From NCBI GenBank assembly GCA_020241125.1, contig GCA_020241125.1_4708.1: a stretch of DNA of 64,000 nucleotides. One strand, given 5' to 3'. A program made the translations under genes and the position numbers. Each line of letters begins with the position of its first letter. Within the stretch, counting starts at the first letter, position 1. Origin of the DNA: a phage. Shown here one piece after another: positions 11,460-41,748 of this stretch. Under the pieces are notes generated by a model. That model saw only the letters and a list, made by a program, of their open reading frames with translations. It did not search any database and was not told where the DNA came from.

Positions 11460-13682
11460 TCAGTTAGTCTGAACAGGCAGCTTGATGTTTTCAGTGTAGA
11501 CCTTACGCAGGTTCACAACGTTAATCAGACCCAGCAGCGGGCAGTTGTTAACGAAGCGGCAGCGCGGCTGAACCATGGTTTCTTTAGAAACCTGACCGTT
11601 ACGGGTAACCTGAGCAACAGATACCAGTTCCGGTACATACAGGAACATACCGAAGGTCAGCGGATCCGGAGAACCCTGGATACCACGAGACAGGGTCACG
11701 AAGATCTTATCGCGCAGCATGACGTTCGGGTTATCTACAACTACGAAGTTGAAGCTTACACCAACGGTACGGAAATCACCATCGGTCTGCAGGAACTGCG
11801 GGATGTAGTTGTCAGTTGCTACTACGCAACGCGGTTTCTCATCAGCGTTGGAAGACAGCAGCTGCAGAGCTGGCTGATAACCAGACTCGGAGTACATGCG
11901 GTATGCCATCTCACGAATCACGTTCATGATCGCAGCAGACACTTCAGCACGACGTTCTGCAGTGGTGGTACCCTGAACAGATTTCTCCAGGTCCAGATTG
12001 ATTTCTTCGAACCACGGACGGATCAGGTAACGACCGAAACCTTCGATCTGGATGTCACCGAACTGACGGAAGCGAGAGGTCGCAACCGCTTTCAGTGCGT
12101 CTTTGTAGCTGAACAGTTTCTCAACCATCAGGTTGTCGAAACGTGCGTTAGCAGCTTGGATCAGAACGTCCAGGTCAGCAGCGTTTTCTTCCCAATCCAG
12201 CGGACGAGGAATGGAGAACGGAGCCAGCAGGCCGATTGCGTAACGTTCTTGCTTCATGTTGAAGTCAAGGTGCTTACCGCGCTCACGACGGTTGCTGTTG
12301 TTACGGCGGATACGCAGTTCGTAACCAACCAGTTTGAAGCTCAGGTCTTCAGCCAGTTGTTTGAACTCTTCGCTCTTACGCGGTTGTTCGATGTTGTCCT
12401 GATCAACCAGGCGATACAGTTCAGCGTTAGCGCCGTTAACACGCAGACCGGCTTTCTCTACGTTGGAAGAACCGTAAACTTCGATCGCCAGCTGAGCAGC
12501 AGATTTCGCATCGATGATGTCCTGCAGCGCTTCAGCTTTCGCGCCTTTAACGTCTTTGGTGTTCTCATCAACGAAGATGGAGTGGGTGTCGAACGCCAGG
12601 GTCATTTTGCGGAAGTCGCCTTCCAGGGATTTCTGGAAACCGTTGGTGATCAGACCAGATACGTCGAACGGTACGTAAGAGGTTTTGCTGTGCTTGGTAG
12701 ATTTGATTTCCACCAGGATTTTGGTCAGCGTGATCTGGGCGTCCAGCGCGTCGGTGTTGTCGCTGTAACCGTTAGCCAGGATGCTATCGTCTTCAGCAAT
12801 ACCGATCATGTCGATCAGTTTATCAACAGCCAGGTAAGACGTTTTGTAAGTTACGCCTTTAATTTCGATGTCGCGCGGAGCAACGATAGCTTTGTCAACG
12901 AAGTACTGTGCGTTAGCATCGTCAGCACGATAGATCGGATGCAGATCGGTCACGTCGTTGGACAGAACGTCGTTGTACATGAACGCATCCAGCAGCGGAC
13001 GACGTACCCAATCAGCCGGAGTACCGTCAGCGTTACGACGCAGGTGGTTGAACACCAGCGGACGACGGAAAGATACGTCGTAACCGATCTGGTTCGGAGC
13101 CAGAACGATGGTGTTGTACAGTTCGTTACCCATGCGGCTCAGACGAGAAGCCTTCACGTTGAACACAACGGAGTACGGCATCATGTCACGCAGTTCTTTC
13201 TGGTCGTAGGACAGCTGAACCAGTTCTTCAGATTCGCAACCGCAGGAATCAGCAGCCATCATGACGAAGTTAGAGCTGTCAACTTCACGGCCAGACGGAG
13301 TGGTGCTGATGTTCATGGAACGTGCTTGTTTAGCATATTCTACCGGGTTACCATGAGCCAGCATGATCAGTGCTGCTGCACGAGCCTGCTGTGCGTTCAT
13401 GGTGAACAGCTGTTCTTCAATACGCTGCTTCTCTTCCGGAGTGGTGGTTTCGAAGCCCAGCATGGACAGAACCGGTTCTTCGGCTTTACGGATGTCGCTG
13501 CTGAAGCTCTTAACATCCATTTCGTTAACCAGTTTGTCCATGGATTTGAAATCAACCTTAGAAGCAGATTCCATAGACAGGAAGGTGTTCTCCAGACCTT
13601 TGTCTGCTGGTTTGCTACCATTAGCGGTCAGGAACTGGCGAGTGGCCGCGACCTGTTGGCTAAGAAGGGTTTTATCATTCAT
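11460..13682 (-). CDS. putative major capsid protein (740 aa; size comparable to phiKZ-type MCP)
   Basis: Strong host-optimal codon usage suggesting high expression; AAGGA SD 8 nt upstream of ATG; functional call from size and codon usage only. Confidence 0.5.
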   Translation of the reverse strand: MNDKTLLSQQVAATRQFLTANGSKPADKGLENTFLSMESASKVDFKSMDKLVNEMDVKSFSSDIRKAEEPVLSMLGFETTTPEEKQRIEEQLFTMNAQQARAAALIMLAHGNPVEYAKQARSMNISTTPSGREVDSSNFVMMAADSCGCESEELVQLSYDQKELRDMMPYSVVFNVKASRLSRMGNELYNTIVLAPNQIGYDVSFRRPLVFNHLRRNADGTPADWVRRPLLDAFMYNDVLSNDVTDLHPIYRADDANAQYFVDKAIVAPRDIEIKGVTYKTSYLAVDKLIDMIGIAEDDSILANGYSDNTDALDAQITLTKILVEIKSTKHSKTSYVPFDVSGLITNGFQKSLEGDFRKMTLAFDTHSIFVDENTKDVKGAKAEALQDIIDAKSAAQLAIEVYGSSNVEKAGLRVNGANAELYRLVDQDNIEQPRKSEEFKQLAEDLSFKLVGYELRIRRNNSNRRERGKHLDFNMKQERYAIGLLAPFSIPRPLDWEENAADLDVLIQAANARFDNLMVEKLFSYKDALKAVATSRFRQFGDIQIEGFGRYLIRPWFEEINLDLEKSVQGTTTAERRAEVSAAIMNVIREMAYRMYSESGYQPALQLLSSNADEKPRCVVATDNYIPQFLQTDGDFRTVGVSFNFVVVDNPNVMLRDKIFVTLSRGIQGSPDPLTFGMFLYVPELVSVAQVTRNGQVSKETMVQPRCRFVNNCPLLGLINVVNLRKVYTENIKLPVQTN

Positions 13683-13831
13683 TGAAAGTATCCTTTACAG
13701 AATTAACTTATATAAGTCGGTCGATAGACCATAGCGTACACGCGTGCATGCGCCACTATAGTATCAGTAAACACTTACCGTTATTGAGGTCGTGATACAA
13801 CACTAAAAATGCCGCATAACTTTTCCCTACG

Positions 13832-16125: not shown

Positions 16126-16173
16126 GCGGTTCCCTCCTCCAACCCGTAAGGGAAGGAGGAGGGGTTATGACCG
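16126..16173. terminator. GC-rich palindromic hairpin family member between convergent genes, with adjacent A13 tract
   Basis: CCCTCCTCCAACCCGTAAGGGAAGGAGGAGGG with GTAA tetraloop; A13 at 16107-16119 gives a U13 tract after the hairpin for minus-strand transcripts. Confidence 0.55.
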
Positions 16174-19489: not shown

Positions 19490-19531
19490 ATATGACCCTC
19501 TCCCAACCCGTAAGGGAAGGGAGAGGGAATA
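19490..19531. terminator. GC-rich palindromic hairpin family member
   Basis: CCCTCTCCCAACCCGTAAGGGAAGGGAGAGGG directly after stop of 19532..20899. Confidence 0.5.
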
Positions 19532-20901: not shown

Positions 20902-21507
20902 TTAACGACCCCGTTGCTGTTGTTGAATGATGAATTCTTCGATCTTCGTACCACGGAATTCGCTGTGACGAACCGCTTGCAGTTGCTCTTCAACGGTTGG
21001 GCCTGCATTGAGACCACCACGACGTGCGCGGTTGATGCCGATTTTACGGCGCTGACCGATTTCACGTAAACGTGAAGATAATCCGCTCATTTCGGTTGGG
21101 TCTTTAATGCGACCGCGTGCAACGTTCCACAGACCACCCATGAACTCTTCGAGGATACGGCTGGCTTCGAGAGACGGTACGCGCGCGTTAGGGTCGTTTT
21201 CGAGATTGTATTTAACGTATTCCGTATGTTCCAGAAGAAGCATGAACATCTTCATGGCGTTCACGTCAGGATTTGCAATACGCATAGGAACACCACGAGA
21301 ATGTTTTTCAGCAGCCTGCGGTACGGTAAGCTGTGCGGGCACCTCTTCGTTCATGGCCATATCGTCGATTTCTGCAACCCCTGAAGAGTAGACGCCGCTG
21401 ACCTCATTGGTGTAATTGTCCACCATGAATTTACGGGGAATCCAGAATTCGAATTTACGTTCAAATAGACGTTTGGTTGGGGTACCTTTAACGTGTTGTA
21501 GACTCAT
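20902..21507 (-). CDS. hypothetical protein (201 aa)
   Basis: ORF; ATGA start/stop overlap with upstream gene. Confidence 0.75.
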   Translation of the reverse strand: MSLQHVKGTPTKRLFERKFEFWIPRKFMVDNYTNEVSGVYSSGVAEIDDMAMNEEVPAQLTVPQAAEKHSRGVPMRIANPDVNAMKMFMLLLEHTEYVKYNLENDPNARVPSLEASRILEEFMGGLWNVARGRIKDPTEMSGLSSRLREIGQRRKIGINRARRGGLNAGPTVEEQLQAVRHSEFRGTKIEEFIIQQQQRGR

Positions 21508-22820
21508 GGTTCAATAGCTCCTGCTCGTAACAGCATAATAACGAACGGTGTGAAATAATAACGATCCAGCGGAGAAAGCAACGGTAATGCGTCAACCATC
21601 TGTTTCAGTGCTGGATGACTGATTGCTTTCTCATCGACCATATCACGTACCATACTCTCAATGATTGTCATTGGGGCTTGATTGCGATAGAAAGCCTCTG
21701 TGAAAACATAGTACGGATCGTCCGCTACAGATGGAAACAACGGAACGCCGTCATACTCCATCGATGTAAGGTTGGTCACCAACGGATTTGTCGGTGGTGT
21801 GTTTTCAGGTACAGCCAACTCTTTACCTACGTCTTCACCGAGCGACGTGGTCGCAGGCCACATACAGAACCGCGCACCACTAAAACGAATCCCACCTGCA
21901 GCCGGGTACTGATAGAAACGCTTTGTTGACAACAGTGTGAATTTCACCGTCAACCGCGCCTCGTCTTCCCGACGTCCGTCCATTACCCATTCAAAGACAG
22001 AAATCGCATTCGCTTCCTGGCTGTCGTCTACGTTAAGACGTCCGAAGTTCCATGAAGGTTTTCCTTCAAGCGACGACCATAATTTCGTAAACGCGTTAAC
22101 ACACCAGGGATCGTAGGTTGCCGCATCCTGACCAGGAACAAGTAATGTGTTTAATTCACGGCTGTAGAATTCATGGTAGTACGCGTGACAAAGTCCCAGC
22201 GCACGACGGAGATAATCATACTTACGATTGTATTTCTCCGTTGCCATTACGGGATGTTTTCCGTGCTTTAACTGGTCTTGGTCGTACAGCGTATCCTCAA
22301 CGATTTTCGCTTCCAGTTCGATAAGCTGTTTTTCGTCAAGAATACGCTGGAAGGAAATATCGCATTCGTAAGCCGGTGCTAAGCTAATGTTCTTCGGCGT
22401 GATTCGGGTGATCGTGTACACCGCGATACGATGATCGAGACCGGAGATTAACAGCATGTTACCTAAAAGAGGAACCGATACCGCCGGAAGTATACACGTA
22501 CCCTCGGATTGAAAACGTGCGGTCCCGTTGTCGTACGACGGCGTCAATGACGACATTAACTTGATAGGGTAATGTCTGATGCGACGGTACTGCTGTTCAG
22601 CGATGTCTCGGTTAGCTTGAAAACTGCTTTGTTCATCATCGCGACCGAGAATCTGTTCGTAATAATCACATTCTACGGAATAACCGGATGCGTAATTCAC
22701 TAACCCGATTTGACTATTGTATTGCTCATCCACCACCGCAGAACGATAAACATCGTCGCGAGCCTTCGCGGGTTGTTGGGGGTTGATGGTGGGTTTCGCG
22801 GGCTTCTTAGCGAGCGCCAT
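21504..22820 (-). CDS. hypothetical virion-type protein (438 aa)
   Basis: ORF. Confidence 0.8.
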   Translation of the reverse strand: MALAKKPAKPTINPQQPAKARDDVYRSAVVDEQYNSQIGLVNYASGYSVECDYYEQILGRDDEQSSFQANRDIAEQQYRRIRHYPIKLMSSLTPSYDNGTARFQSEGTCILPAVSVPLLGNMLLISGLDHRIAVYTITRITPKNISLAPAYECDISFQRILDEKQLIELEAKIVEDTLYDQDQLKHGKHPVMATEKYNRKYDYLRRALGLCHAYYHEFYSRELNTLLVPGQDAATYDPWCVNAFTKLWSSLEGKPSWNFGRLNVDDSQEANAISVFEWVMDGRREDEARLTVKFTLLSTKRFYQYPAAGGIRFSGARFCMWPATTSLGEDVGKELAVPENTPPTNPLVTNLTSMEYDGVPLFPSVADDPYYVFTEAFYRNQAPMTIIESMVRDMVDEKAISHPALKQMVDALPLLSPLDRYYFTPFVIMLLRAGAIEP

Positions 22821-24372
22821 AGCGTTTCACTCCTACGATGGTACCGACAAGAATTCTCGGTACGAATAAACTACGATGTTTGAACCACGAAGCGGTTGTT
22901 GGGATACGTTTGATGGCTTCGATAAGCCCGATTAGCGTATAGCACCCCCGACTGTTCTTCTTAGGCCAGTACTTTTTATCTAGACCTAATACTGCAAACA
23001 GCTCATCCACCAGATTGGGATAACAACACAACGCTTCAAGTGTTTCAACCTGTAACTGACTTAAATCTAACAGTATCGCCAGACGAACGTGGTAATCACT
23101 CCGTAAGTCTAACGGATCTTTCGCTTCAAGATCGCCAACGTCGGTTAATGTCCACGCGTCTCTTGCGTAGCGGTATTTGCCCTTCCAAACCTCAAGGAAA
23201 AAAGGAGACTGGTAATGACATTTTGACCATTCTGGGTACTCACGGAACCACCGAACAAGATCGGGATGGAATTCACCTTCTTCGGCTAACGAGTCCAACG
23301 TCACCAACAGGTTAGGTTGTTCAGGATCGATGGCAAGCAGCGCGGTGAAAAGCGTGCTTGATGGAAGTTCGGTTTCCACACTTGATGGCGGTAGCCATTC
23401 ATCCAGATCAGGATACCGATACGCTTGAATCGACGCACCCTGCTCGGGCAAGAACGAATCACGAAGAATGTCCTGATACTGCACCACCATACCACCACGA
23501 CGCGCACGGGATTTATCACGCACCGAAAGGCTCGGTTTGTAAAGGTACTCTTCGGGGAGTATCTGTTGGTGTACTTGAACAGGATACCGTGCTACGATAT
23601 GTGTTGGCGTGTCGTACGTGTAACGGTAAGAGAAGGTTGCGTTGTACGAAGAACTGTTCTCATTCTTCTCTGGCTTCGGAGCGTCGGTGAAATCAAATTG
23701 ACCAGAGATCTCTTCTTGCATTTCCCTGATAACCAATTTAACGCTCTTACCGTCACCGGCAACTGTCGTCATGGTGGTTGCGCGGTTGTCGAACCCGTCT
23801 CTAAGGTATTCGCTGAACTTATCCCCGTAACCCGCTATTGCTTCCCGGTGTGTATGAATAACTTTTAACAACATGAGAAACTGTGTTGGGATCGCATAGC
23901 TGTATTCGGCGCTAAGGAAGGCAGCGACATGCTGACTTGTGAGCAACCGTTTCATGTCGTACCACCAACGTTCGGCAGTGACCTGATCTTCGAACCGTTT
24001 GGTGATCTGCATGGTTGCAACCATCGTACTGTAAACAGGTACTAACGATACGCCAAGGTTACGGTCTTCAAATACGGGAAGACTGTTTCGTTTGTAAACG
24101 GTATCGTACATAGAGGCCTGTTCTTCAGGGACAATGTTAAGCTCAATTTGGATAAACCCGTCAGCAGGCCCCTTTACATCCTGATCAACAACTTGCGGCG
24201 GTTGCTCGTTCGCAGCACTCATTTTAGCGTGAAGAGCTTCCCCTCGAAAAAGAATGTTCTCCCGACTATAATCCCACCCGCAAAGCTCGCTGATCTGCCG
24301 TAACACCGCGATTGCAACCGGACGTGTTACCGTCGCGTATACGTCATTGATTTTTCGATCAAGTTTAGGCAT
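22807..24372 (-). CDS. hypothetical virion-type protein (521 aa)
   Basis: Start trimmed to ATG 24372 (GAGGA 9 nt upstream). Confidence 0.75.
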   Translation of the reverse strand: MPKLDRKINDVYATVTRPVAIAVLRQISELCGWDYSRENILFRGEALHAKMSAANEQPPQVVDQDVKGPADGFIQIELNIVPEEQASMYDTVYKRNSLPVFEDRNLGVSLVPVYSTMVATMQITKRFEDQVTAERWWYDMKRLLTSQHVAAFLSAEYSYAIPTQFLMLLKVIHTHREAIAGYGDKFSEYLRDGFDNRATTMTTVAGDGKSVKLVIREMQEEISGQFDFTDAPKPEKNENSSSYNATFSYRYTYDTPTHIVARYPVQVHQQILPEEYLYKPSLSVRDKSRARRGGMVVQYQDILRDSFLPEQGASIQAYRYPDLDEWLPPSSVETELPSSTLFTALLAIDPEQPNLLVTLDSLAEEGEFHPDLVRWFREYPEWSKCHYQSPFFLEVWKGKYRYARDAWTLTDVGDLEAKDPLDLRSDYHVRLAILLDLSQLQVETLEALCCYPNLVDELFAVLGLDKKYWPKKNSRGCYTLIGLIEAIKRIPTTASWFKHRSLFVPRILVGTIVGVKRYGAR

Positions 24373-24748
24373 CGATGTCGTCCTCGCTAATTTCCTCACC
24401 TCCTTGTTGTCGATATCCGGTATAATGAATCAGACTGCTCTGTAGAAGCTCTTTAACGAGCCCTAGACGCGTTTTATCTGTTTCATTGGACGTTTCCATT
24501 AATGTTTCTATTTCGTTGTTTAAAACAGCGTATAGCGCTTCTAACGGCAATCCTTGGATGATTGGTTTGATGGTACCTTCCGGTAGTGCCGCAACAGGAA
24601 TCTGCACGACGGTTTCGTGTGCGGTATGTGGGTTAATACGGCAAATATACATACCGGGTACTGAATGTCGCGGGCACGCCGCTACCAAGCATGTCTGTTG
24701 CTGCGCACCGTTAAGTGCGAGTGAAAGAAATTTTGCTTCACGTGTCAT
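24365..24748 (-). CDS. hypothetical protein (127 aa)
   Basis: ORF. Confidence 0.6.
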   Translation of the reverse strand: MTREAKFLSLALNGAQQQTCLVAACPRHSVPGMYICRINPHTAHETVVQIPVAALPEGTIKPIIQGLPLEALYAVLNNEIETLMETSNETDKTRLGLVKELLQSSLIHYTGYRQQGGEEISEDDIDA

Positions 24749-24836: not shown

Positions 24837-27800
24837 TTACTTGTAGGCACCGCAATGGGCTTTGATGAGGAAAAGCACCGCTTGCATCGGTTTATTGAAC
24901 TGTTGCCATAACGTCAATGCCGGATGGAACAACCAATCTTCCAGGCCGAGAACAATACCGTAGTTAACGACATTATTAACATCGTTCTCAACGTTGAGTT
25001 CGCTATCCAGGAATTTATCGATTGAACGCAGGGTCTGCATGGCGTTGTCAGCAATAAGCCAAGCTTCATGTGCTTCACGAGCCGCACGCAGCACTGCCTC
25101 CAGTTCGCTGATAGTAGCTACCGGTAATTCCTCACTGGTGAGGTCGTCAGAAACCGTAAACTGGCGATTGATACCGGTGTAGATCCACTGCATCAGTTTC
25201 GCTGCTTCCTCGTTCGGGTTGTTACGCGTTGTCGCATAAGTCGCGCTCACCTTCACGATGTGCGTTTCACCAAGATACGCTTTGGACCCAACACCTTTAC
25301 GATCGCTGTCTTTCCACGGTTGTACGGTAGCGACCATGAGCTTATCCCATTTCTGAATAGGAATACGCTTCAGACCAACAACCGATCCAGCGGATGTTTC
25401 GGACTGGTTGCTCTTCCGCACGTCGCTGAGCTCACGATCGATCGCAACGATTAATTCACGCGTCATGTTACCAAGCATTTTGATTTCACCCAACGCAGCG
25501 ATGAGCTTCTTCACATCGGTAACAGGTTCACCACCGATGGTAAGATGACGGATGAAACGTTTCAGAATAATCCGTTCTGCTGCTGGGTTACCGCGACGCG
25601 CTTTGGCCAGCGCTTGCTGTGTTTCGGCGAACAGCTTATCCCATGGAGCCGTAGCGGCGGTATAGTAACGATGGTTGGTTTCAATCCAGTTACCGATACG
25701 GTTAACCGCGCTCTTAACGGTATCCATGAATCCTTCCATCGCAATTTCGGTAGCTTCGACGTTACCCTGGAAGTTATCGGGACCGATCTCGCGTGCCGCT
25801 ACCAGAATACCTTCCACCGCGCTCACCGCGTGGCGACCGATAGCCAGATTTCGCTGCGCTTCTTCAGCACGCTCAACGAATTCCACCACCGCAGGATTAT
25901 CAACGATTTCCGCCTCGGCAACAACACGTGTACCGGCATCGCCTTCCAGTGTTTCGATGGTGACAACAGGATCGTTTTCACCAGCAACATCCTGGTATTC
26001 TTCCTGTTTGAGATCGCCGTTATCAGCCGCTGCGACAGCGGTGAGTATACGAACGGTAACATCGCCGAGTTCTTTTGCAGCGAATCCGTAAACGGTGCAT
26101 GCGGTCGTTGCAAAGTTCATCAGGGTACGTGTGCGCTGCGTGACGTAGCGTGCGCCCGATTCGTTTTCCACTTTGTCCAGATCGCGGAGTAACTGCTCAG
26201 CCGTCTCCTGAAGTTGAGTAACTGCTTTCAGGAGGTCTTCGTCAAACAGTTTCGTTGCCGCACCGATCAGCATTTCAACGCTAACGTTGGACGGCACAGC
26301 ATCATCCTGTTGTTTCATGGCGCTAAGTTCGTCACGGAACTCACGAATGCCGTTTAACGCATCGTCGATAGAATATCCGAACGCTTTCACGCCCGCCATT
26401 CCAAGAGCTGCTTTCATTTCAGCTGGATGCTGAACTTGCTCGCCTTCCTTGCTGTTCTTTAACTCATCGAAATATTTCTTCGACGCGTCCGCAATACGTT
26501 TACTGTCTTTAACCGCATTTACGATCTTATCGACAGATTTCGAGTCGTTTGCGAGCAGCGTATCCAGTTTATTCCACTCAACGTCAACCTTCTTGGTGTC
26601 GCTCGGCGGAGGAAGCAGTTTCATCACTGGTGCTGTGCGTTGTTCTTTGGTCAGCTTGTCGGCCTTCTCTTCGATTTTTTTCTTATTAACACCAAAGAGA
26701 TTTTTCAAACGCGCCACGAGGGCTTTTAAGAACTTCGCGACCGCTTCGTAAACCGATTTCAGAATCTGTTTAAAGCGACCCGGCTGCTTTTCCCCGTCTT
26801 CCAGATTGAGATCGCTGTTCAGTGCGACATCAAGCTGTTTGTACGATTCCATGATGTATTCGTCTTTGATTTCAGGACGAATCTCGAAGCTTTCCATCGG
26901 ACCTTCAGCCGGACGGAATTCCATTTTCAGTTCGCCTTGCAGGGTAGGGTCGACAATGGCGATCGCTTCACCCTGACCATCAGCGTTAAAGCGTTCAGCG
27001 TAACGAGTACGGCGAACAATAACACTCTTATCCCCATCAAGACGACGTACCACCATGGTGCCAGGAATGTACGGTTGTTCTGTTTCAATGACGGTTACAT
27101 CTGTTTCACCCTCACCGAGAATAACAGATGCACGCTGTTCAACAACAGGAACATCTAATACACCACGGGCTTCCAGCTCTTGATGAATTTCGAACGACTC
27201 TTGTTTCAGATCTTCATCTTCTTCGTTTTCGTCGTCTTCATCATCGTCACCTTTGGTGTTTTCATCACCCTTGGTGGTTGTGTCGTCGGTGGCACCAGCG
27301 TCAGCGTCGGTGTTAGCAGGTTCTTCGGACGCAGGTTCGGTGGTGTTGTCCTCCGTGGACGACCCGTCAGTGTTATCGACATCAACATCACCTTGCAGTT
27401 CTGTTTCCTGAGCAACTGCTTCGGCTTTCTGCTCGCCGGTATTGCCGTCATTAGCGTCAACGACAGGTTGTTCGTCAGCGACGGTATCTTCAACCTTTTC
27501 TACTTTCTCCACGACACGTTTAATCACGGTGACTTTGATGGGTTCTTCCGTTGTTTTGGTTTCTGGCGTCACCTCGGTTGCCGCAGCCGCTGTTTCAGCA
27601 ACAGGTTCTGCTTTTTCCGGTTCGACGACATTACCTTTAACACCTTCGGTGGTTTCTGCAGGTTGCGCTGCCTGTTCGATTTGCGCCGGATTGGTTGGAT
27701 CGATGGCGTTAGCCGCATCCTGAATCTTGTTCTTCAGGTTGTCGCGGTCAGCGTTAACGGTCGGGTCGTTGGTCACTTTCGGTGCCGGTGTTTCGGTCGG

Positions 27801-28214
27801 TGCGTTTGCCGGATACGGGTTCTTCGGCTCTTCGCCAGGTGCGGTCGGTACCGCGATCAGAACGAACGGTTGAACATCGTTACCGTCTTCCATGGTTACG
27901 CCACCGTTGCTCGGTGTGAAACGAATTCGTAAACTACCATCAATAGGACGGGTCACAATAACAGCACGTACGACATCCTCACCGTTCTCATCCGTGCTAC
28001 GAATCACACGAACAGCGTCATCAACGGTAGCCCCTTCCTCGAGCGTATCTGATTCGATCGTCGCTTCGATGCTGTCTGGCCGTGCCGCTGTAGGTAATGC
28101 GATCACTTGCTCTTCTTTATCAGTAGAAAGCGTTGCTTTGACTTCGATAGGTGTATCGCCGCTTTCCAGGTTAAGATGCGACTTACGCATCAGATCAGCT
28201 AACGATTTTTTCAT
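24837..28214 (-). CDS. very large hypothetical virion-type protein (1125 aa) with acidic low-complexity linker
   Basis: Long ORF; GAGGA upstream; internal DDEDDENEEDEDLKQ and Thr/Asp/Glu-rich stretch. Confidence 0.85.
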   Translation of the reverse strand: MKKSLADLMRKSHLNLESGDTPIEVKATLSTDKEEQVIALPTAARPDSIEATIESDTLEEGATVDDAVRVIRSTDENGEDVVRAVIVTRPIDGSLRIRFTPSNGGVTMEDGNDVQPFVLIAVPTAPGEEPKNPYPANAPTETPAPKVTNDPTVNADRDNLKNKIQDAANAIDPTNPAQIEQAAQPAETTEGVKGNVVEPEKAEPVAETAAAATEVTPETKTTEEPIKVTVIKRVVEKVEKVEDTVADEQPVVDANDGNTGEQKAEAVAQETELQGDVDVDNTDGSSTEDNTTEPASEEPANTDADAGATDDTTTKGDENTKGDDDEDDENEEDEDLKQESFEIHQELEARGVLDVPVVEQRASVILGEGETDVTVIETEQPYIPGTMVVRRLDGDKSVIVRRTRYAERFNADGQGEAIAIVDPTLQGELKMEFRPAEGPMESFEIRPEIKDEYIMESYKQLDVALNSDLNLEDGEKQPGRFKQILKSVYEAVAKFLKALVARLKNLFGVNKKKIEEKADKLTKEQRTAPVMKLLPPPSDTKKVDVEWNKLDTLLANDSKSVDKIVNAVKDSKRIADASKKYFDELKNSKEGEQVQHPAEMKAALGMAGVKAFGYSIDDALNGIREFRDELSAMKQQDDAVPSNVSVEMLIGAATKLFDEDLLKAVTQLQETAEQLLRDLDKVENESGARYVTQRTRTLMNFATTACTVYGFAAKELGDVTVRILTAVAAADNGDLKQEEYQDVAGENDPVVTIETLEGDAGTRVVAEAEIVDNPAVVEFVERAEEAQRNLAIGRHAVSAVEGILVAAREIGPDNFQGNVEATEIAMEGFMDTVKSAVNRIGNWIETNHRYYTAATAPWDKLFAETQQALAKARRGNPAAERIILKRFIRHLTIGGEPVTDVKKLIAALGEIKMLGNMTRELIVAIDRELSDVRKSNQSETSAGSVVGLKRIPIQKWDKLMVATVQPWKDSDRKGVGSKAYLGETHIVKVSATYATTRNNPNEEAAKLMQWIYTGINRQFTVSDDLTSEELPVATISELEAVLRAAREAHEAWLIADNAMQTLRSIDKFLDSELNVENDVNNVVNYGIVLGLEDWLFHPALTLWQQFNKPMQAVLFLIKAHCGAYK

Positions 28215-28229: not shown

Positions 28230-29336
28230 TTAAAAGTAATATTTCAGCGCCTCGCGAGAGACATCAAGCATAGCCGCTGTTGAATTCGTAAAGAACTCGG
28301 CATAGCCCACAAGCGGCACCTTGATCCACGCGGTATACGCTGTAAGGTATCGAGAAAGGGCTACCATAGCATCATCAGAAGCAGTAGTAACTGACAACTG
28401 ACCTTGTTGACGATAAACGTCGTTAAGTTTTGCTTGTAGATTCCCTGCGATTTCGAGTAACTCGTTGGCGTACTTTTTACGATGGTAACTAACCAGTAAA
28501 TCAACACCCGTATTTACCGACTCGAGTAGCACACCAACTTGTTCTAATGTTGGCATTGTAACCACCATATCCCGTTCAACGGACGGTACATCCTGGACTT
28601 CAAACCGTGCGGATTGAATAGCGAGGGACTGTTGAATTGAACCAGAACCTGAGGTGGTAACCTGATCGAGTCGTAGCGTACGGTTGCCCAGTAACGTTAC
28701 ATTGACGAGTCTCGATTCGTTCAGCGTACTGTAGACTTTATGCAATAACGTATACGCATCACGATTAATCACATCGATTAATGCGGTATCCGTCTGTTTT
28801 AAGATAATGTCGAGTGCTCTATCTAACGTATTAGCGAACTGCTTAAAATCATCACGGAACGACGAAGACAAGAGATATTCAGCGATTGCCAAATTCTGTT
28901 TGTATAACGTATTCCCAGTTGTGAAGTCGAATCCAAAACTGTTCCCATACCGTAGGTGCGGTGCCAGCGTTGACGAAGCTTCGAAGCTTTGCGCGATGGG
29001 TTTACGACCAACGGCTTTTGTGTAGTGACGGCGGATGTTGCTGAGTTCGAGCTGTAGTGCGCGACTACGATCGATAAACCGGGCGATAAACGCAGTGATG
29101 TTCCGCAACGTTGTCCAGATCGCATCGATGATGGCTTTGATGATTTTCATCGCAAGCTGATTGTACGATTCCATCGTGAGGAGATCAGCACTTTCTGTGG
29201 TATAACCGGTTGCCGGAATACCGCCTGCTTGCTGATAAATAAGCTGGTGAATTTGTCGTTGCGTTGCTGTCTCTGGCACAGGTAATGTTTTTAACAAGCT
29301 TAACGCTTGAATCTGTCCGTCATAGGTCTGCAGCAT
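28230..29336 (-). CDS. hypothetical protein, member of head/internal-protein-like paralog family (368 aa)
   Basis: Start trimmed to ATG 29336 (GAGGAAA 6 nt upstream); architecture similar to the next three genes. Confidence 0.75.
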   Translation of the reverse strand: MLQTYDGQIQALSLLKTLPVPETATQRQIHQLIYQQAGGIPATGYTTESADLLTMESYNQLAMKIIKAIIDAIWTTLRNITAFIARFIDRSRALQLELSNIRRHYTKAVGRKPIAQSFEASSTLAPHLRYGNSFGFDFTTGNTLYKQNLAIAEYLLSSSFRDDFKQFANTLDRALDIILKQTDTALIDVINRDAYTLLHKVYSTLNESRLVNVTLLGNRTLRLDQVTTSGSGSIQQSLAIQSARFEVQDVPSVERDMVVTMPTLEQVGVLLESVNTGVDLLVSYHRKKYANELLEIAGNLQAKLNDVYRQQGQLSVTTASDDAMVALSRYLTAYTAWIKVPLVGYAEFFTNSTAAMLDVSREALKYYF

Positions 29337-30621
29337 TGCTGGTTTCCTCAAGTTCGAGATGCGCGTCAAGATAATCATTAAGACCGTCGATGACGTCGCA
29401 GACAGTTAACAGGAATCGGGCAAAAGCAACCGCCTGGAAGCCGACGACGTTACGCGCGATACCCACACGTTGAACGATAGCGGATGCGGTGGTATCGTCG
29501 TTGTCCATCTGTTGTAGCAAACGCTCGTAAGGTTGAATCCATTCGTCCTGGTCGGCAAGGCCTGCTTCAAGACAACGTTTAAATTCCAACTGTCGTAGCG
29601 TAGACCATAATGTACTTAATGCGTTGATGATTGTATTGGTTCCGTCGATAACGTCGTTCAACGGTAAGAAACGGAATCCGTCTTTTGCTGATTGGAACGG
29701 TGCAGCCTCCCACACAACGCTGAATTGTGTTCCTGTTGCGTCTTCGATGTTGTGTAATTTAAGGTAGGAAGCACCAACAGGTGCGTCAACGACGATATCG
29801 TCTGTTCCGGTAGGCTTTAACGGCTTCTCGCATAACGCGTCGTTGATGACTTCGAGGATATTCTCCCAACAGGCTTCGTTTTCTGCAGCGATACCTTCTT
29901 TGTTATCCGCTGATGGTGCTTTTAGTAGCTGCATTAATAACGGATCGAGTTGACGATGCCATGCTGCGAGGATTCCTGTGTTCGTTACGATGTTTTCTGC
30001 GGTTTGTCGTAAATCAGCAATGCTGCTTACCGCACCGCCTTTCGGATGAAGATATCGCCAGTTGTAGGGAAAGTTCTCCCAGAATGCGTTATCTTCATCG
30101 ACGTCGTATTCGGAAATAGTTTTCAACGCAGCCGCTTTCTTTAATAACGGCTTCACCTGACGAACGAATCGACGATAACAGCGATTACAGATATCGATCG
30201 CATAGCGGTATAATTCGTTCATGTAAAGCCATAACGCTCGGGTTGCTTCTTTTGCGGTCTTGTCAAAACTTTCCATGTTCAAGCTCATCCCGCTGGAAGT
30301 TTCCTCTTCCAGACCCTCGATGATTTGGTTTGGGTCCATTCCCATTCCGGCTGCTGCGGTTGTTGCGATATGTTTGATCGTGCTGATATCGCGTTCTTCA
30401 ACTTCAGCCATGTTTGGGACAATATCCAGCCGGAGTTTATTTAATGTTTGAAGGTGTTGTTCACCTTCTTTCATCACCGTGTTTGTTTCGTCGATTGAGT
30501 GAAACTGATTCTCAATATTACTGGCATCGAGAATGTTGCCAGCGATACCGAACGATTCTACAGGTTCATCATCAATCCCTTGAAACAACGATGTCATGGG
30601 TTGTTGCAACACGTTTTCCAT
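29320..30621 (-). CDS. hypothetical protein, paralog family member (433 aa)
   Basis: ORF; N-terminal module RDISTIKHIATTAAAGMGMD resembles 30771 and 32070 products. Confidence 0.8.
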   Translation of the reverse strand: MENVLQQPMTSLFQGIDDEPVESFGIAGNILDASNIENQFHSIDETNTVMKEGEQHLQTLNKLRLDIVPNMAEVEERDISTIKHIATTAAAGMGMDPNQIIEGLEEETSSGMSLNMESFDKTAKEATRALWLYMNELYRYAIDICNRCYRRFVRQVKPLLKKAAALKTISEYDVDEDNAFWENFPYNWRYLHPKGGAVSSIADLRQTAENIVTNTGILAAWHRQLDPLLMQLLKAPSADNKEGIAAENEACWENILEVINDALCEKPLKPTGTDDIVVDAPVGASYLKLHNIEDATGTQFSVVWEAAPFQSAKDGFRFLPLNDVIDGTNTIINALSTLWSTLRQLEFKRCLEAGLADQDEWIQPYERLLQQMDNDDTTASAIVQRVGIARNVVGFQAVAFARFLLTVCDVIDGLNDYLDAHLELEETSNAADL

Positions 30622-30721
30622 TTGGGACTCCTACGTAGGAAAATCTTGGCGGGTGATCATGTCCGCCATTTACCTTCTGAACCGTTGATTCAGAAGTCAA
30701 AAGATAACCGGATACCAACGC

Positions 30722-30764
30722 CATAAAACCTTCCTCCAACCCAACAGGGAAGGAGGAAGGGATA
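30722..30764. terminator. GC-rich palindromic hairpin family member
   Basis: CCTTCCTCCAACCCAACAGGGAAGGAGGAAGG after stop of 30771..32060. Confidence 0.5.
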
Positions 30765-30770
30765 TAGTGG

Positions 30771-32060
30771 TTATGCTTTTTCGGTTACAGCGTCGAAGTA
30801 TTTCGCTGCAGCAAATACAGCATCCGCATATTGGCGTATCGAAGCGCGAAGAATCTTGGTTGACAATACAGTACTTAAGCGCGCCATTTCAGAAACCGCG
30901 CTTACATAAGGACGGATGGTTTCACGATCGGCTTCAGGCAGCTTGTCGAGCATATCACCCCACTTCGTTTTGATTTTCATGCCGTTGAGTTTAGCGGTAC
31001 GCTCCACAGAACCGGCCAAAGCTTCAACCATGTGGAAATAAGAGGAGTCTATCGTACGGAACACGTTAAGATAGGAAGTCAATGCACCTTTCAGTTCGTT
31101 ATCGTCTTTGAAAATGTTTGCGTTCTCTATCTCACCGGTCACCGTCGTCTCGGCTTCAACCCGAATATTTTTCACCAACGTATAGGCTTTAATCGCATCG
31201 TGTTCGTTTTCGACGGCGTCGAGACCTTGAATAACGAATTCCTTCCCACCGCTCTCTGGAAAAACAACTTTATTCAGAGCTGATTTGATCGCCAGCAGGT
31301 ATTTGTCTAAGATAGACGGAAGCAGTGTGAGGTCAGTGAGGTCTGCGACCTTTTTATTGATATCAGCCACATGCTTAAACAGTGAATCCGTCCCGCTTGC
31401 GCTTGCAGCGAGTTGTTCGATATGCTTGCTTGCAAACACGGCATTCGCTGATTTAGCATTAGGGAACATATTGACCATATTTCCAGTGGGCTTATCCAAC
31501 TGTTTGATATGGCGCTCACCTTTATTCACAGCGGTTGCGATCTTGACAATTTTGTTGTATGCAACGACCAGGTTCTTGAACAACATCTGGAACAGTTTGA
31601 ACAGTTGCTCAGCGATATTCGCAATGATTACCCAAACTGCGTATAACGCTTGTGCTGCGCGTTCTTTAAAGCCTTCCAGCACAATAGCTTGCCCTTCCAC
31701 CAAACGATCGTCAGCTTGGAACATGTCTTCATCGGACATCCCCAGGTTAGCCGCTGACGTCGAAGCAATCTGACGGATAAGGGCGATGTCGCTCGCACGT
31801 GCTTCAGGGATCGTAGGTGCGATCATGTACGCGGTATCTTCCAGCGTTGCTGAGGTACGCACCGCAATTTCAGCCAGTTCGCTGGATTCGTCGATCGTCT
31901 CGTCGGTGCGTCGAACCACCAACTCAACTTCGTCCTCTTCGATTTCTGCGTTGGGATCATTTTGCTCCGCTGGAATTGCCGCAAGAAGATCTTCGGCGCT
32001 GAGCAGTGCGAGTTCGAATGCGTTTTTATTGACGTTATCAAAAAGAGAGATGCGGGCCAT
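30771..32060 (-). CDS. hypothetical protein, paralog family member (429 aa)
   Basis: ORF; ARASDIALIRQIASTSAANLGMSDED...VEGQAIVLEGFKE module. Confidence 0.8.
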   Translation of the reverse strand: MARISLFDNVNKNAFELALLSAEDLLAAIPAEQNDPNAEIEEDEVELVVRRTDETIDESSELAEIAVRTSATLEDTAYMIAPTIPEARASDIALIRQIASTSAANLGMSDEDMFQADDRLVEGQAIVLEGFKERAAQALYAVWVIIANIAEQLFKLFQMLFKNLVVAYNKIVKIATAVNKGERHIKQLDKPTGNMVNMFPNAKSANAVFASKHIEQLAASASGTDSLFKHVADINKKVADLTDLTLLPSILDKYLLAIKSALNKVVFPESGGKEFVIQGLDAVENEHDAIKAYTLVKNIRVEAETTVTGEIENANIFKDDNELKGALTSYLNVFRTIDSSYFHMVEALAGSVERTAKLNGMKIKTKWGDMLDKLPEADRETIRPYVSAVSEMARLSTVLSTKILRASIRQYADAVFAAAKYFDAVTEKA

Positions 32061-32069
32061 GTTAGTTCC

Positions 32070-33410
32070 TTAACCTTTGGTATAAGCTTTAACGAGAGTG
32101 TTGATAAATGAGGTCAATGCACGAAGATATTGGTAAGCGAATTGGTTTTCAATACGGTTCTCTTTACCGCAAAGCAGAATCGCGCGCTTAACGAGCTTAG
32201 GATAGATCTCAACGTACGGTTGGTAGCTCGCATCAAAATTCTGCTCGTTGAAGCGTTTCATGGTAACGTATTGGATGCGTTCCATGGTACGGATTTTATT
32301 ACGAGAGAATATCTCAGAGAAAGCACGCCCACGTTTTGTTACCATCAACAGATCTTTCGCGAACGTCAGTTGTCGAACGCTACGCAAATCGTCAGGTGTC
32401 GGCAGGACGTACGTTTCCGGGTCACTATCCCATTCAACATCTTCAACGACAATATCCAAATCGAGGTAACGTTTAACCGCATCGATGATATTGTCTTTTG
32501 ACGCATCGAATTCTTTCAAGAAGACTGCACCGTTGACGTAGCGGATGCGTTTTCCGGAAACCGTTGGGGTGATAACGTCAGTACCTTCCACGGAACCGCG
32601 ATTTTCCAGTGTCGATTTGACAGCGTTCAAGAAAGTCAGATAATCAACGGGAAGTTTTTCAACTTTATCTAAATGGAAGTCGATGATGTTTAATCCTAAC
32701 CCATCAATAACTGAATAACCGTCCGATTTAAGGAACATCTGATTGAAGGTATCGATGTTGCTTTTCAGCGCGTCTACACCACCAACGTTGTTACGGTTAG
32801 GGAAAAGTGTCCGCCACTCCGCTTTAAACGCAACTTCTTTATTTTCCTCGTATTTGCCTTTAGGCATTTGTTCGAGGTCTGCAACGGCTTTCTGAAAATT
32901 GCGCGTCTCGTCGTAAACAAGACGGGTAAGCTTCTCGAAGGCTGCTGCCAGAGTCAGGGCAATATCAACGATGATATCCCAGATCTTTTTCATGGCTTTT
33001 ACAACGGTGTCCTTAAACCCTTCAACAACCAAAGCTTCTCCAACCTCAACACGATCGGTTGGGGTCAGCAATGCTTCGGAGGGTAGACCCAGAGCAATCG
33101 ATGCGGATTCTTGAACGTTACGAACTAATGCAACGTCACTGTAGTTAGCCGATTCGATAGTCGGAGCAACATCAAAACTGATTTCCCGCAGTGCAGCAAC
33201 AGCAGGGAAAGCACGATCAAGTGCATCTTCATGTTCGTCGATTGTCGCTAAACGTAATTCAACACCATCGGCGTCGATGACTTCAGTGGTAGGCTCCACG
33301 GCAAGCGCCTCAGCAACAATAGGATCTTTTTCAAACGCCTCAAGGCTGATATCGCCCTGGGTCGCAAATAGCGGTATGTGTACCATGTGTTGTCTCCAGT
33401 AATGATTCAA
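32070..33410 (-). CDS. hypothetical protein, paralog family member (446 aa)
   Basis: ORF; ANYSDVALVRNVQESASIALGLPSE...VEVGEALVVEGFKD module clearly aligns with 30771 product. Confidence 0.8.
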   Translation of the reverse strand: MNHYWRQHMVHIPLFATQGDISLEAFEKDPIVAEALAVEPTTEVIDADGVELRLATIDEHEDALDRAFPAVAALREISFDVAPTIESANYSDVALVRNVQESASIALGLPSEALLTPTDRVEVGEALVVEGFKDTVVKAMKKIWDIIVDIALTLAAAFEKLTRLVYDETRNFQKAVADLEQMPKGKYEENKEVAFKAEWRTLFPNRNNVGGVDALKSNIDTFNQMFLKSDGYSVIDGLGLNIIDFHLDKVEKLPVDYLTFLNAVKSTLENRGSVEGTDVITPTVSGKRIRYVNGAVFLKEFDASKDNIIDAVKRYLDLDIVVEDVEWDSDPETYVLPTPDDLRSVRQLTFAKDLLMVTKRGRAFSEIFSRNKIRTMERIQYVTMKRFNEQNFDASYQPYVEIYPKLVKRAILLCGKENRIENQFAYQYLRALTSFINTLVKAYTKG

Positions 33411-33426: not shown

Positions 33427-33472
33427 GCATAGAACCCTCTCCCAACCCGTAAGGGAAGGGAGAGGGGATATG
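33427..33472. terminator. GC-rich palindromic hairpin family member
   Basis: CCCTCTCCCAACCCGTAAGGGAAGGGAGAGGG (core identical to copy at 19496) after stop of codon-optimised 33489..34811. Confidence 0.5.
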
Positions 33473-33488: not shown

Positions 33489-34811
33489 TTACTGCTGTGC
33501 TGCGTCAGCCGGTTTCTCAGCCGCCTGGCCGCCGTACTCTTTCAGCATTTTAGCAACGCCATCCAGGACAGCGTTACCTGCCTGAACACCGTATTTCATC
33601 AGACCGGTCTGCGGGTTCACGTAGCAGGAACGTGCGTCTTTCAGTGCAGACAGTACAGCTTGAACACGCTGTTTTTCCTGAGCGGAAACTTCGCCTTTCT
33701 TAGACAGATCGGCTTCCATATCGTCACCGAATTTAACAGCGTCTTTGAAGCCCTGGGATTTCTTACCGATGTTGCCTTTCAGCGCCAGCAGTTTGTCGGC
33801 CAGTGCTTCAACACCGCTAACCGCAGCAGCCAGCTGATTCAGGGACAGGACGGTAGCTTCAACTTCTTTTGCTTCGCCAGAGCGTTCCCAGGTTACTTTA
33901 CCATCATTGGCTTTGAAACCCCAACCTGCCGGGCCAGCAACGTCAGCAATCGCCGGAGCGTTCAGTTTATCAGCGTACTCGGTGTGAGATTTAGCAACAA
34001 CGGTACCAACGAATTTATCAGCACGATCGTCAGCAGCCTTCATTGCTTTCTCGAAGGTGTCAGCGATTTTGGTCGCGCCGGTAACCAGATCATCACCACC
34101 GATGTAACCAGAAACGCCGCTACCCAGTTTAACTTTGGTATTTTTAGCAGCGCCTTTACGCTTGGCGATCATTTCTTTCAGTTTAGCAGCACGTGCTTTC
34201 AGTTTGGTCGCGCCGTCGAAGATGCGATCCATGAACTTCACGAAGGTTTCCCAGGAAGTCTTCAGGAAGTTCTTGATGGTTGCCCACAGTTTCTGCCACC
34301 ATTTTTGTTCTTCCAGGAAGATCATGTTGGTTGCATCGTAGCGGGAAGCGGAACCACCGAAGCTTTCGAAGGAAGGCATGGTTTCCGGCAGTTTGAAACC
34401 GATAGTACCACACAGACGTTTCAGATTACGCATGTGTTCTTGCGCGGTCTGTGCAGACATACCACCGTCTTTCAGGTAGCTTTCGGTTGCAACAACGGTT
34501 TCCGTCAGTTCATCCATGGCTTCGTCCATGGCTTCTGCGGTTTCGTCGTCTTTTGCAATTTCGATAACAACAGCATCAACCTGCTCGATATCACCACGAA
34601 CTTCGATAGCCAGTTCGGTTTCAGCTGCGGTATCTTCAGCGATTTCAGCACGTTCGGTCAGTTCAGCCACAACGGTTTCATCCGCTGGTGCAGCATCAGC
34701 TGCCGGTTCTGCTTCAACGGTTGCCGCTGCATCCGGGTCGATCTCAGCAGCCAGTTGAACCAGCTGTGCGTTAGATGGATTTGCGACAAGACGATCAAAA
34801 ATAGAAGGCAT
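33489..34811 (-). CDS. abundant virion or scaffold-like protein with acidic Ala-rich N-terminal region (440 aa)
   Basis: Host-optimal codon usage like the MCP gene; N-terminus rich in A/E/D/T; function inferred. Confidence 0.75.
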   Translation of the reverse strand: MPSIFDRLVANPSNAQLVQLAAEIDPDAAATVEAEPAADAAPADETVVAELTERAEIAEDTAAETELAIEVRGDIEQVDAVVIEIAKDDETAEAMDEAMDELTETVVATESYLKDGGMSAQTAQEHMRNLKRLCGTIGFKLPETMPSFESFGGSASRYDATNMIFLEEQKWWQKLWATIKNFLKTSWETFVKFMDRIFDGATKLKARAAKLKEMIAKRKGAAKNTKVKLGSGVSGYIGGDDLVTGATKIADTFEKAMKAADDRADKFVGTVVAKSHTEYADKLNAPAIADVAGPAGWGFKANDGKVTWERSGEAKEVEATVLSLNQLAAAVSGVEALADKLLALKGNIGKKSQGFKDAVKFGDDMEADLSKKGEVSAQEKQRVQAVLSALKDARSCYVNPQTGLMKYGVQAGNAVLDGVAKMLKEYGGQAAEKPADAAQQ

Positions 34812-34875
34812 AATTTGTTTCCTTTACAATAAATTGCACATTAGCTAATGCGGCTTAAGTGAACCGTCAGCTCAC

Positions 34876-35406
34876 TTAAAAGCCCTTAAAACCCGGTGCC
34901 ATAGGTTGCCCAAACACCGCATTCAAAGTACATATGATGTCCTGGATGCCATTGTCCCAATGGAGCCAAGTACGCACCATCTCTTCGTCTGACAACGTGA
35001 TATAACTCATAAGTTTACCGCTGCTTTCCAGGCGTTGGTGTGAACTTAACGACTGACGATCTGACCAGTTATCAATCAATTGACCAGCAATCTGAACGTT
35101 CGTGTCTCGTCTACCCGTGTGAATGAACCGTAGCGTATCACGGATAAACTCCAGACTGGTGAAGTTCAGATTTGGGTTATGGCTGTTCATTTCCACCCAA
35201 TCGGTGATGGGGTACATCAAACGATAAAGGGTAGAAAGAACCTGGCGTTCATATTTCCAGTCATCGAGAGGAGTACCGTCGACCAGACGCTGATACAAAC
35301 TAACAACGTCACGATCGTAGTTCTCCTGGCGTTTTACACCGTTAACCGGAAATCCGAAGAACCCGGTACCGTATAACGTTAAAGGGACGTCACGAAGTGC
35401 ATTCAT
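34876..35406 (-). CDS. hypothetical protein (176 aa)
   Basis: ORF; 4-nt overlap with upstream gene. Confidence 0.65.
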   Translation of the reverse strand: MNALRDVPLTLYGTGFFGFPVNGVKRQENYDRDVVSLYQRLVDGTPLDDWKYERQVLSTLYRLMYPITDWVEMNSHNPNLNFTSLEFIRDTLRFIHTGRRDTNVQIAGQLIDNWSDRQSLSSHQRLESSGKLMSYITLSDEEMVRTWLHWDNGIQDIICTLNAVFGQPMAPGFKGF

Positions 35407-41702: not shown

Positions 41703-41748
41703 AGCATAACCCTCCTCCAACCCAACAGGGAAGGAGGAGGGAATATGC
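41703..41748. terminator. GC-rich palindromic hairpin family member between convergent genes
   Basis: CCCTCCTCCAACCCAACAGGGAAGGAGGAGGG. Confidence 0.5.

Follow-up and report, generated by a model that had tools for sequence, protein, structure and literature searches.

A probable six-gene array of internal head protein paralogs in a Goslar-like jumbo phage

What do four adjacent phage genes of similar length encode, and how far does their kinship extend, to one another, to their neighbours and to the virion proteins of other phages? The genes in question lie at positions 28230-33410 of a 64,000-nucleotide (nt) stretch of phage DNA (NCBI GenBank assembly GCA_020241125.1, contig GCA_020241125.1_4708.1), which is called the window at its full length. 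A preliminary description, made from the sequence, saw in the open reading frames (ORFs) 28230, 29320, 30771 and 32070, so named for their lowest coordinates, a four-gene family of ~370-450-amino-acid (aa) proteins set between a 1125-aa and a 440-aa protein. The phage is Goslar-like, a jumbo phage of the nucleus-forming kind. In the analysis reported here, it is highly likely (probability about 0.85) that its four genes belong to a tandem array of six from the phiKZ internal head protein family (PF12699), of which they make up the low-copy part. Homology, the fold of 30771, synteny, purifying selection and the register of a junction motif are established here. Both the family itself and the detection of the Goslar orthologs in virions have been published before; thus the finding is correct, not new.

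Layout of the array and kinship of its genes

The segment 28230-33410 is 93.4% identical at the nucleotide level to Escherichia phage vB_EcoM_Goslar, a nucleus-forming E. coli jumbo phage. The array genes pair one-to-one with Goslar gp53-gp59, in the same order and orientation, and are referred to below by the Goslar numbers; their GenBank Goslar entries are hypothetical proteins only. All are on the minus strand. The upstream anchor is the gp59 ortholog (34876..35406), a phiKZ gp91-like vertex-binding protein (Pfam PF25618 PhiKZ_gp91, E=1e-46). It is followed by the first and dominant array member, the major internal head protein gp58 (33489..34811, 440 aa), which has a full-length PF12699 match. 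The four minor paralogs come next: gp57 (32070..33386, 438 aa), gp56 (30771..32060, 429 aa), gp55 (29320..30621, 433 aa), which is the most divergent member, and gp54 (28230..29336, 368 aa), in which the N-terminal region is short. The large terminal member, gp53 (24837..28214, 1125 aa), has an acidic N-terminal half and a PF12699-like C-terminal domain. Amino acid identity to the Goslar orthologs is 97% for gp54, gp55 and gp57, and 79% for gp56.

All four ORFs were located at the positions given in the preliminary description; two of the starts, however, probably lie further downstream, given the positions of the ribosome binding sites. The gp54 ORF reaches 29378, but GAGGAA lies 7 nt upstream of the ATG at 29336, giving 368 rather than 382 aa, and the gp57 ORF reaches 33410, but GGAGA lies 6 nt upstream of the ATG at 33386, giving 438 rather than 446 aa. 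The Goslar annotation agrees with both starts.

Judged from their sequences, the paralogy of 29320, 30771 and 32070 is solid. In BLASTP with composition-based statistics, 30771 matches 32070 with E=4.7e-18 (27.6% identity over 326 aa), and 29320 matches 30771 (7e-9) and 32070 (1.8e-8) over its first ~175 residues. The N-terminal module first proposed for this trio is borne out: its motifs are present, in the variants SDIALIR, SDVALVR and RDISTIK, then LGM, LGL and MGM, and finally VLEGFKE, VVEGFKD and NMESFDK, and the similarity is well beyond chance. Comparison by hhalign of ortholog profiles (five sequences each: the window, Goslar and three other genomes of the Goslar type) joins gp56 and gp57 over their full length at 98.5%, and gp55 to either at 85-90%. 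Thus, 30771 and 32070 are homologous throughout, and 29320 is related to them only through ~175 N-terminal residues and a short C-terminal helix. These shallow five-sequence profiles gave no direct link of gp53, gp54 or gp58 to the trio. 28230 has no BLASTP match to the trio and an hhalign score of at most 0.3%; it is tied to the trio only via the wider family profile. The "similar architecture" once ascribed to 28230 therefore holds through the family profile described below, not through direct similarity.

On the sequence comparisons that follow, the family is one of six genes, since the 440-aa gene joins the four, as does the 1125-aa gene with its last ~300 aa. The earlier placement of the four genes between these two was right as to position, but both boundary genes are family members themselves.

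A more distant metagenomic relative (ENA ERZ27271673 k141_32367; L013/L014) has a five-gene array encoding proteins of 447, 461, 452 and 387 aa and a terminal protein of 1666 aa. Its layout is a gp91-like gene, a PF12699 protein, the proteins P0069 and P0073, a second PF12699 protein and then the 1666-aa protein. Because the counterpart of the trio is two genes in this relative, the comparison points to a lineage-specific duplication in Goslar-like phages.

Membership in the phiKZ internal head protein family

How are these proteins tied to a family that sequence searches barely detect? In a tblastn search of 50,697 phage records with 28230, 32070 and the 440-aa protein, only Goslar and one weak Pseudomonas phage match were found; BLAST is therefore unable to link the family. 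Word-indexed protein searches likewise returned Goslar-like orthologs only. In Pfam, the 440-aa protein gp58 matches PF12699 with 79.3 bits (E=4.4e-22), above the gathering threshold of 27 bits, which is the operational cut-off of one model and not a biological definition. Accepted phiKZ members are themselves marginal or missed by PF12699 (gp96, 31.8 bits; gp97, no match). The ortholog cluster of 28230 (P0035) carries a precomputed PF12699 match.

A more sensitive family hidden Markov model (HMM) was grown from phiKZ gp93 inside eight non-Goslar phages only. The resulting profile holds 36 proteins from phiKZ, PhiPA3, SPLA10, PhiEaH1, PCH45, Moabite, FBKp24 and LucasX, and leaves out Goslar-like sequences. 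In hmmsearch it matches gp58 with E=2.2e-26 and gp54 (28230) with E=4.2e-15 over aa 68-381 of the 382-aa ORF, that is, the whole C-terminal domain. In hhalign against this profile, gp58 scores 98.9%, gp54 96.9%, gp56 and gp57 merged 95.7%, the trio merged 94.6%, gp57 alone 89% and gp56 alone 77%. Five helix-rich neighbouring head genes used as controls score at most 1.4%. The membership of gp55 (29320) is based on its N-terminal homology to 30771 and 32070, together with a published AlphaFold3 model (see below).

Residues 822-1125 of gp53 score 93.8% against the same profile. This C-terminal segment (nt 24840-25751) aligns with profile columns 122-444, scores 92.5% when isolated, and is preceded by AME↓GFMDT, where the arrow marks the candidate junction. 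A further stretch of gp53 (aa ~480-522) aligns with columns 134-176, the first long helix of the domain, at 91%, which suggests a degenerate, partial second family unit. The motif (M)E(S/G)(F/Y) recurs in gp53 near aa 440, 456 and 827, and residues ~120-340 are acidic and of low complexity.

When 1.84 billion representatives were searched exhaustively by HMMER with a gp56/gp57 profile, only 11 proteins were found. Among them are P0073 (2.9e-18) and P0074 (1.7e-5), which are both over the PF12699 cut-off, at 28.6 and 144 bits. An unrestricted iterative search was set aside: it reached the trio only after the trio's own orthologs had joined the profile (window gp57, E=0.032, round 3), and later rounds were not used. 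That search also drew in the phiKZ gp86 family and a 930-aa window protein (41751-44543, minus strand; Goslar gp64), which has no match in a Pfam search. phiKZ gp86 (L005 4415-5683) matches only the N-terminal (propeptide) part of PF12699, with 17.7 bits. Together these sequence matches suggest a propeptide module common to several head proteins.

Synteny points the same way. Loci were fetched through the gp91-like neighbour, which has a tblastn match in 97 phage records, from the same eight phages (phiKZ, PhiPA3, SPLA10, PhiEaH1, PCH45, Moabite, FBKp24 and LucasX). The array comes after the gp91-like gene without exception: 8/8 fetched loci have a gp91 homolog and then two to eight tandem family genes. 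Genes like gp98/gp99 come after the array in six of the eight, within the fetched stretch; of gp98 the PhiPA3 stretch contains no more than the beginning, and in LucasX no such gene was identified within the stretch fetched. The window array fills the slot of phiKZ gp92-97, between the gp91-like and gp98/99-like genes, a synteny noted earlier (bioRxiv 10.64898/2026.04.21.720040). Downstream of the window array, the genes at 21504-22820 and 22807-24399 correspond to the tail adaptor (gp50) and tail terminator (gp51) of the Goslar virion model and carry precomputed Pfam head-tail joining families. This therefore places the array between capsid-vertex genes and neck genes.

The fold was modelled here for 30771 and 29320. 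The AlphaFold2 model of 30771 has a predicted local distance difference test score (pLDDT) of 74.1 and a predicted template modelling score (pTM) of 0.61. A Foldseek search with it against BFVD gave 47 hits at E<=1e-3 (best E=2e-7), and all 47 are chimallivirus internal head or virion structural proteins aligned at full length (~400 columns). In the PDB, the 30771 fold has no solved homologue, with nothing beyond generic helical hairpins, and PDB sequence searches were empty. AlphaFold3 models indicate that Goslar gp53-58 share the PF12699 fold (Fig. S14, bioRxiv 10.64898/2026.04.21.720040). The shared fold is thus seen here for 30771 and, in the Goslar preprint, for all six proteins. With synteny, the non-Goslar profile, the library-wide profile search and the fold search in agreement, the likeness to the internal head or ejection proteins of giant phages that was first suggested for the array is upheld.

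Are the proteins in the virion? In Goslar, gp53 and gp58 carry PF12699 and all six proteins were detected in purified virions, with estimated copies of ~330 (gp53), ~70 (gp54), ~50 (gp55), ~60 (gp56), ~50 (gp57) and ~2150 (gp58) (bioRxiv 10.64898/2026.04.21.720040). The orthologs were found by tandem mass spectrometry coupled to liquid chromatography (LC-MS/MS) of CsCl-purified virions with 31-45% sequence coverage, which bears out the expectation that such proteins are virion components. The Goslar virion peptide list (Table S4) was covered here in the part with peptides starting A to ELK; semi-tryptic peptides with G/S starts lie outside that part. Individual peptides confirmed within it include some from the C-terminal domain, such as AALTSYLNAFR (aa 325-335) of gp56 and ALQLELSNIRR of gp54. 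Whole virions were analysed, so that placement in the head, not the tail, is an inference. Goslar gp58 is injected and stays with the early-infection (EPI) vesicle, and ejection in Goslar has been demonstrated only for gp58; several phiKZ members are ejected into the host with the DNA.

Junction motif, expression and divergence

The alignment of the wider family has two conserved Glu positions, ~15-20 residues apart: the first reads PS(M/L)E↓S(Y/F) and the second (V/I)S(L/T)E↓(G/D)(L/I/F)K. Both are of the S/A/G-x-E type that is the signature of the chimallivirus prohead protease. In hhalign, the window motifs VLE↓GFKE (gp56, aa 127-132), VVE↓GFKD (gp57, aa 120-125) and AME↓GFMDT (gp53) are in register with the second conserved Glu column, and PSFE↓SF and FLE↓EQKWW of the 440-aa protein are placed on both columns. 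The corresponding motifs are NME↓SFDK (aa 115-120) in gp55 and TME↓SYNQ (aa 54-59) in gp54. The second column also holds the only SQE motif of phiKZ gp86 in that region, and cleavage of gp86 has been reported at SQE-122 (PMC5694885); this Glu has number 123 in a longer ORF and number 116 when counted from the start now annotated. SPN3US gp53 in its mature form begins (E)↓GWKETLKDLFER (PMC10052503). It was matched to the second column via the SPLA10 paralog (VSLE↓GIKETLRNWW), SPN3US itself being outside the alignment. Since the window motifs sit on conserved Glu columns, the N-terminal module noted at the outset would be a propeptide-like region plus its junction to the helical domain.

By analogy with these systems, the following sequence of events can be proposed. 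Each protein would consist of an N-terminal region of ~55-130 aa ending at a hydrophobic-x-Glu followed by (Gly/Ser)-(Phe/Tyr), and then a helix-rich domain of ~300 aa. The N-terminal region may carry the protein into the prohead, as in phiKZ gp93/gp162 and SPN3US gp53/gp54, and the prohead protease may then cut at the conserved Glu and so set the helical domain free. This domain would remain in the DNA-filled head and exit with the DNA into the EPI vesicle. phiKZ gp93 and gp162 attach to the inner capsid surface by their N-terminal segments, from which the protease separates the helical domains; these are injected at the next infection (PMC11297242). It is thus by analogy that the four minor paralogs would be expected to be targeted to the capsid, cleaved and ejected.

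The abundance of the proteins is reflected in their genes. The effective number of codons (Nc) is 31.6 for gp58 and 30.1 for the major capsid protein, so the early remark that the 440-aa gene is codon-optimised was apt; the four minor genes have Nc of 49-58 and gp53 has 42. The strength of the bias runs parallel to the published copy numbers. Long antisense, stop-free ORFs lie opposite the two most codon-biased genes, one of 766 aa (11385-13685, plus strand) opposite the major capsid protein gene (11460-13682, minus strand) and one of 390 aa (33660-34832, plus strand) opposite the 440-aa internal head protein gene (33489-34811, minus strand). Codon bias most likely produced them as a side effect. 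In Erwinia phage PhiEaH1 such an antisense ORF (CF95_gp225) is even annotated, opposite that phage's own internal head protein.

What sets the drop in expression after gp58? A two-tier hairpin lies on the minus strand between the gp58 gene and the next paralog (33435..33467; -27.5 kcal/mol, z=-4.8) and is followed by TTCTATG. A second copy after the 30771 gene (30729..30761, minus strand; -27.7 kcal/mol, z=-4.5) is followed by TTTTATG. The two are homologous and their stems covary. A further hairpin (30647-30668, minus strand; -12.8 kcal/mol, z=-3.1) corresponds to an annotated terminator in Goslar. The hairpins split the array into gp58, then gp57-56, then gp55-54-53, and the drop is probably set by the one at 33435-33467, acting as a terminator and perhaps carrying a promoter. 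Together with the codon bias, the hairpin units would fit one dominant protein (gp58) and dozens of copies of each minor paralog. The hairpin consensus, CCCTCYYCC-TTCCCT-NNN-GGGTT-GGRRGAGGG, has six copies in the window against 0.01 expected: 16139-16156, 19503-19520, 30736-30753, 33442-33459 and 41717-41734 on the minus strand, and 63415-63432 on the plus strand. Their outer stems covary, the copies with checked flanks lie directly 3' of genes on the coding strand, and at least three of the six are followed by TATG within a few bases. The element is probably a terminator family that belongs to the phage itself, and a late promoter may be combined with it. A scan with sigma-70 promoter and terminator consensus sequences gave matches not above shuffled expectation.

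All array genes are under purifying selection, with ratios of non-synonymous to synonymous divergence (dN/dS) of 0.04-0.19 among four related genomes. Two of the minor paralogs stand out. Synonymous divergence (dS) between window gp56 and its Goslar ortholog is 0.85, against 0.07-0.2 for neighbouring genes, and dS of gp57 is 1.7-2.2 versus two further genomes (L003 and L002). Over the same genome pairs, gp56/gp57 have dS of 0.85-2.2 and amino acid identities of 67-85%, against 0.07-0.3 and 95-100% for their neighbours, so that synonymous and non-synonymous divergence are both several-fold higher, while dN/dS stays at 0.06-0.17. Because high dS and dN go together with low dN/dS, the pattern looks like a mosaic due to allele replacement by recombination, confined to these two paralogs, and not like relaxed constraint.

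Goslar-like genomes are also found in assemblies labelled as bacterial isolates, namely Enterobacter hormaechei, E. coli including O157, Shigella sonnei and Salmonella enterica, with proteins in clusters P0015, P0018, P0031, P0044, P0050, P0064 and P0065. Several of these contigs (190-245 kb) are near-whole phage genomes, which suggests a carrier state or contamination of the sequenced cultures.

Competing readings and comparison with known systems

Several observations weigh against a family of processed, ejected internal head proteins. In Pfam, 28230 (21.5 bits, in the C-terminal domain) and 32070 (22.3 bits) fall under the PF12699 gathering score, and 29320, 30771 and the 1125-aa protein have no PF12699 match. 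The match of 32070 (aa 36-162) is to the N-terminal (propeptide) part, which an unrelated vertex protein, phiKZ gp86, also matches. gp55 alone scores 43% against the family profile, through its C-terminal helix only. Its AlphaFold2 model is unusable (pLDDT 39; the order of helices and strands resembles that of gp56). TM-scores of the 30771 fold hits are low, 0.3-0.4, as expected of long flexible helical bundles. Across the array, P3 of the junction reads V, V, N, T, A or F (V, V, N and T in the four minor genes), whereas phiKZ and SPN3US prefer S/A/G. In the covered part of the Goslar peptide list, uncut peptides span both gp53 motifs, one weak peptide comes from the N-terminal region of gp55, and those from the N-terminal region of gp58 are weak (areas 927-4,880 versus a total of 1.08e7 over 87 peptides). 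Finally, no inner body was seen in Goslar by cryo-electron microscopy (cryoEM) (bioRxiv 10.64898/2026.04.21.720040).

Prohead-protease cleavage in the Goslar lineage is accordingly doubtful. The major capsid protein of the lineage keeps canonical G-C-E150 and S-E-E153 sites, just before the first cryoEM-visible residue at ~158. Tryptic peptides that would span the junction motif include LVEGQAIVLEGFK and VEVGEALVVEGFK. Of four testable N-terminal peptides of gp56/gp57, none is in the listed range from A to ELK, and peptides of the N-terminal half of gp53 are abundant there, this half being retained in virions. The peptide pattern, as far as the covered range goes, is what would be expected if most of the gp58 propeptide were removed and the gp53 N-terminus kept. 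The comparability of the peak areas is too low for a figure to be put on the loss of propeptide.

Other readings of the four minor paralogs have to be set against this evidence. That the similarity is merely compositional, among helix-rich proteins with identities of 18-28%, can practically be dismissed: E-values with composition-based statistics reach 5e-18, the five helix-rich neighbours score at most 1.4%, and the motifs are in register within a conserved synteny, so that this explanation is refuted by the controls. Long helical proteins beside head genes, with Glu-containing, protease-like motifs, also call to mind a scaffold or core from which the prohead is built and which is degraded and expelled as the head matures. 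The Goslar orthologs in CsCl-purified mature virions, with their 31-45% coverage and C-terminal-domain peptides, largely refute this, and it is very improbable. A possible, though unlikely, role is mainly that of capsid-bound minor capsid (cementing) proteins, whose N-terminal arms or helical bundles would coat the inside of the T=27 shell, stabilise it and stay behind after DNA ejection. In phiKZ the capsid incorporates the N-terminal segments of gp93 (aa 14-84) and gp162, which bridge hexamers in the manner of fibres (PMC11297242); beside the Goslar vertex complex there is unassigned helical-bundle density "reminiscent of the PF12699 fold" (bioRxiv 10.64898/2026.04.21.720040); and ~50-70 copies are near the 55-60 copies of vertex-associated proteins. 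However, such binding is compatible with ejection, since the phiKZ proteins do both after cleavage, and helical domains of family members are reported to be injected.

Could the minor paralogs instead be diversified injected effectors, active in host take-over, anti-defence or the EPI vesicle, in which the N-terminal module is a packaging signal and members are exchanged in an arms race? The far greater divergence of gp56/gp57 than of their neighbours in the same genome pairs, the range of two to eight paralogs between phages, the tolerance of several phiKZ paralogs to transposon insertions, and phiKZ gp184/Tad1, a capsid-anchored, protease-released anti-defence factor, would all suit this reading, which is rather unlikely. 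Against it, dN/dS is 0.06-0.17 and positive selection is not seen at the level of the gene, and domain searches detected no enzymatic or other domain in the minor paralogs, the fold being the common helical domain. More speculative, and less probable still, is a cassette in which the four are distinct injected factors, not redundant filler, with nothing in common but a module for packaging and release, made up of the N-terminal region and the Glu↓(G/S)(F/Y) junction. Recombination between Goslar-like lineages would then swap gp56/gp57 to suit host-specific targets met in the first minutes of infection, and the junction might be uncut. The atypical P3 residues and the uncut gp53 peptides are the reason to consider that the junction is perhaps no longer cut in the Goslar lineage. 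If so, release would differ from that in phiKZ and SPN3US, and the early targets might include the EPI vesicle or defence systems.

The low-copy members of a PF12699 array thus remain the favoured identity of the four genes. The question matters because PF12699 proteins are present in thousands of copies per virion and some are injected, and their role is an acknowledged open question for nucleus-forming phages; their function has been called "a key unsolved mystery" (bioRxiv 10.64898/2026.04.21.720040). To this the window adds nothing categorical, but it offers small pointers in the junction motif, the signs of a partial second unit in the 1125-aa member and the allele replacement in two paralogs.

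Similar strategies are known in other phages. The T4 internal proteins IPI, IPII and IPIII carry an N-terminal sequence that directs them into the prohead core; the prohead protease cuts them after Glu, they enter the host together with the DNA, and IPI is an anti-restriction effector. They would thus work similarly in targeting, Glu cleavage and injection, but they have no sequence or fold relationship to the window proteins, are much smaller and have targeting sequences of ~10 aa. SPN3US gp53/gp54 (paralog family A) are PF12699 paralogs whose 125-137-aa N-terminal propeptides are cut off by the prohead protease gp245, and the mature gp53 start, (E)↓GWKETLKDLF, aligns with window VLE↓GFKERAAQAL, as mapped via the SPLA10 paralog. 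Unlike the window array, however, the SPN3US family has only two members, each in >600 copies, and cleavage is after A-x-E, which the window trio lacks at this site. Family sizes of two to seven members have been noted for SPN3US and PhiPA3. Goslar itself differs in its gp56 allele, from which that of the window is markedly divergent, and the Goslar preprint is silent on processing sites, on the N-terminal motif that the proteins share and on the hairpins between genes.

The fullest comparison is with phiKZ gp92-97 (also gp162 and gp163). Sequence identity to the window proteins is under BLAST detection. Copy numbers differ too, several phiKZ paralogs being present in ~100-200 copies each and the Goslar lineage having one dominant member. 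The motif's P3 is S/A in proteins of the phiKZ type and V/N/T/F in the window, and no inner body was seen in Goslar. Both arrays nevertheless consist of six tandem genes with a large last gene (gp97, 816 aa; here 1125 aa), and in both a helix-rich C-terminal domain is preceded by a conserved Glu motif.

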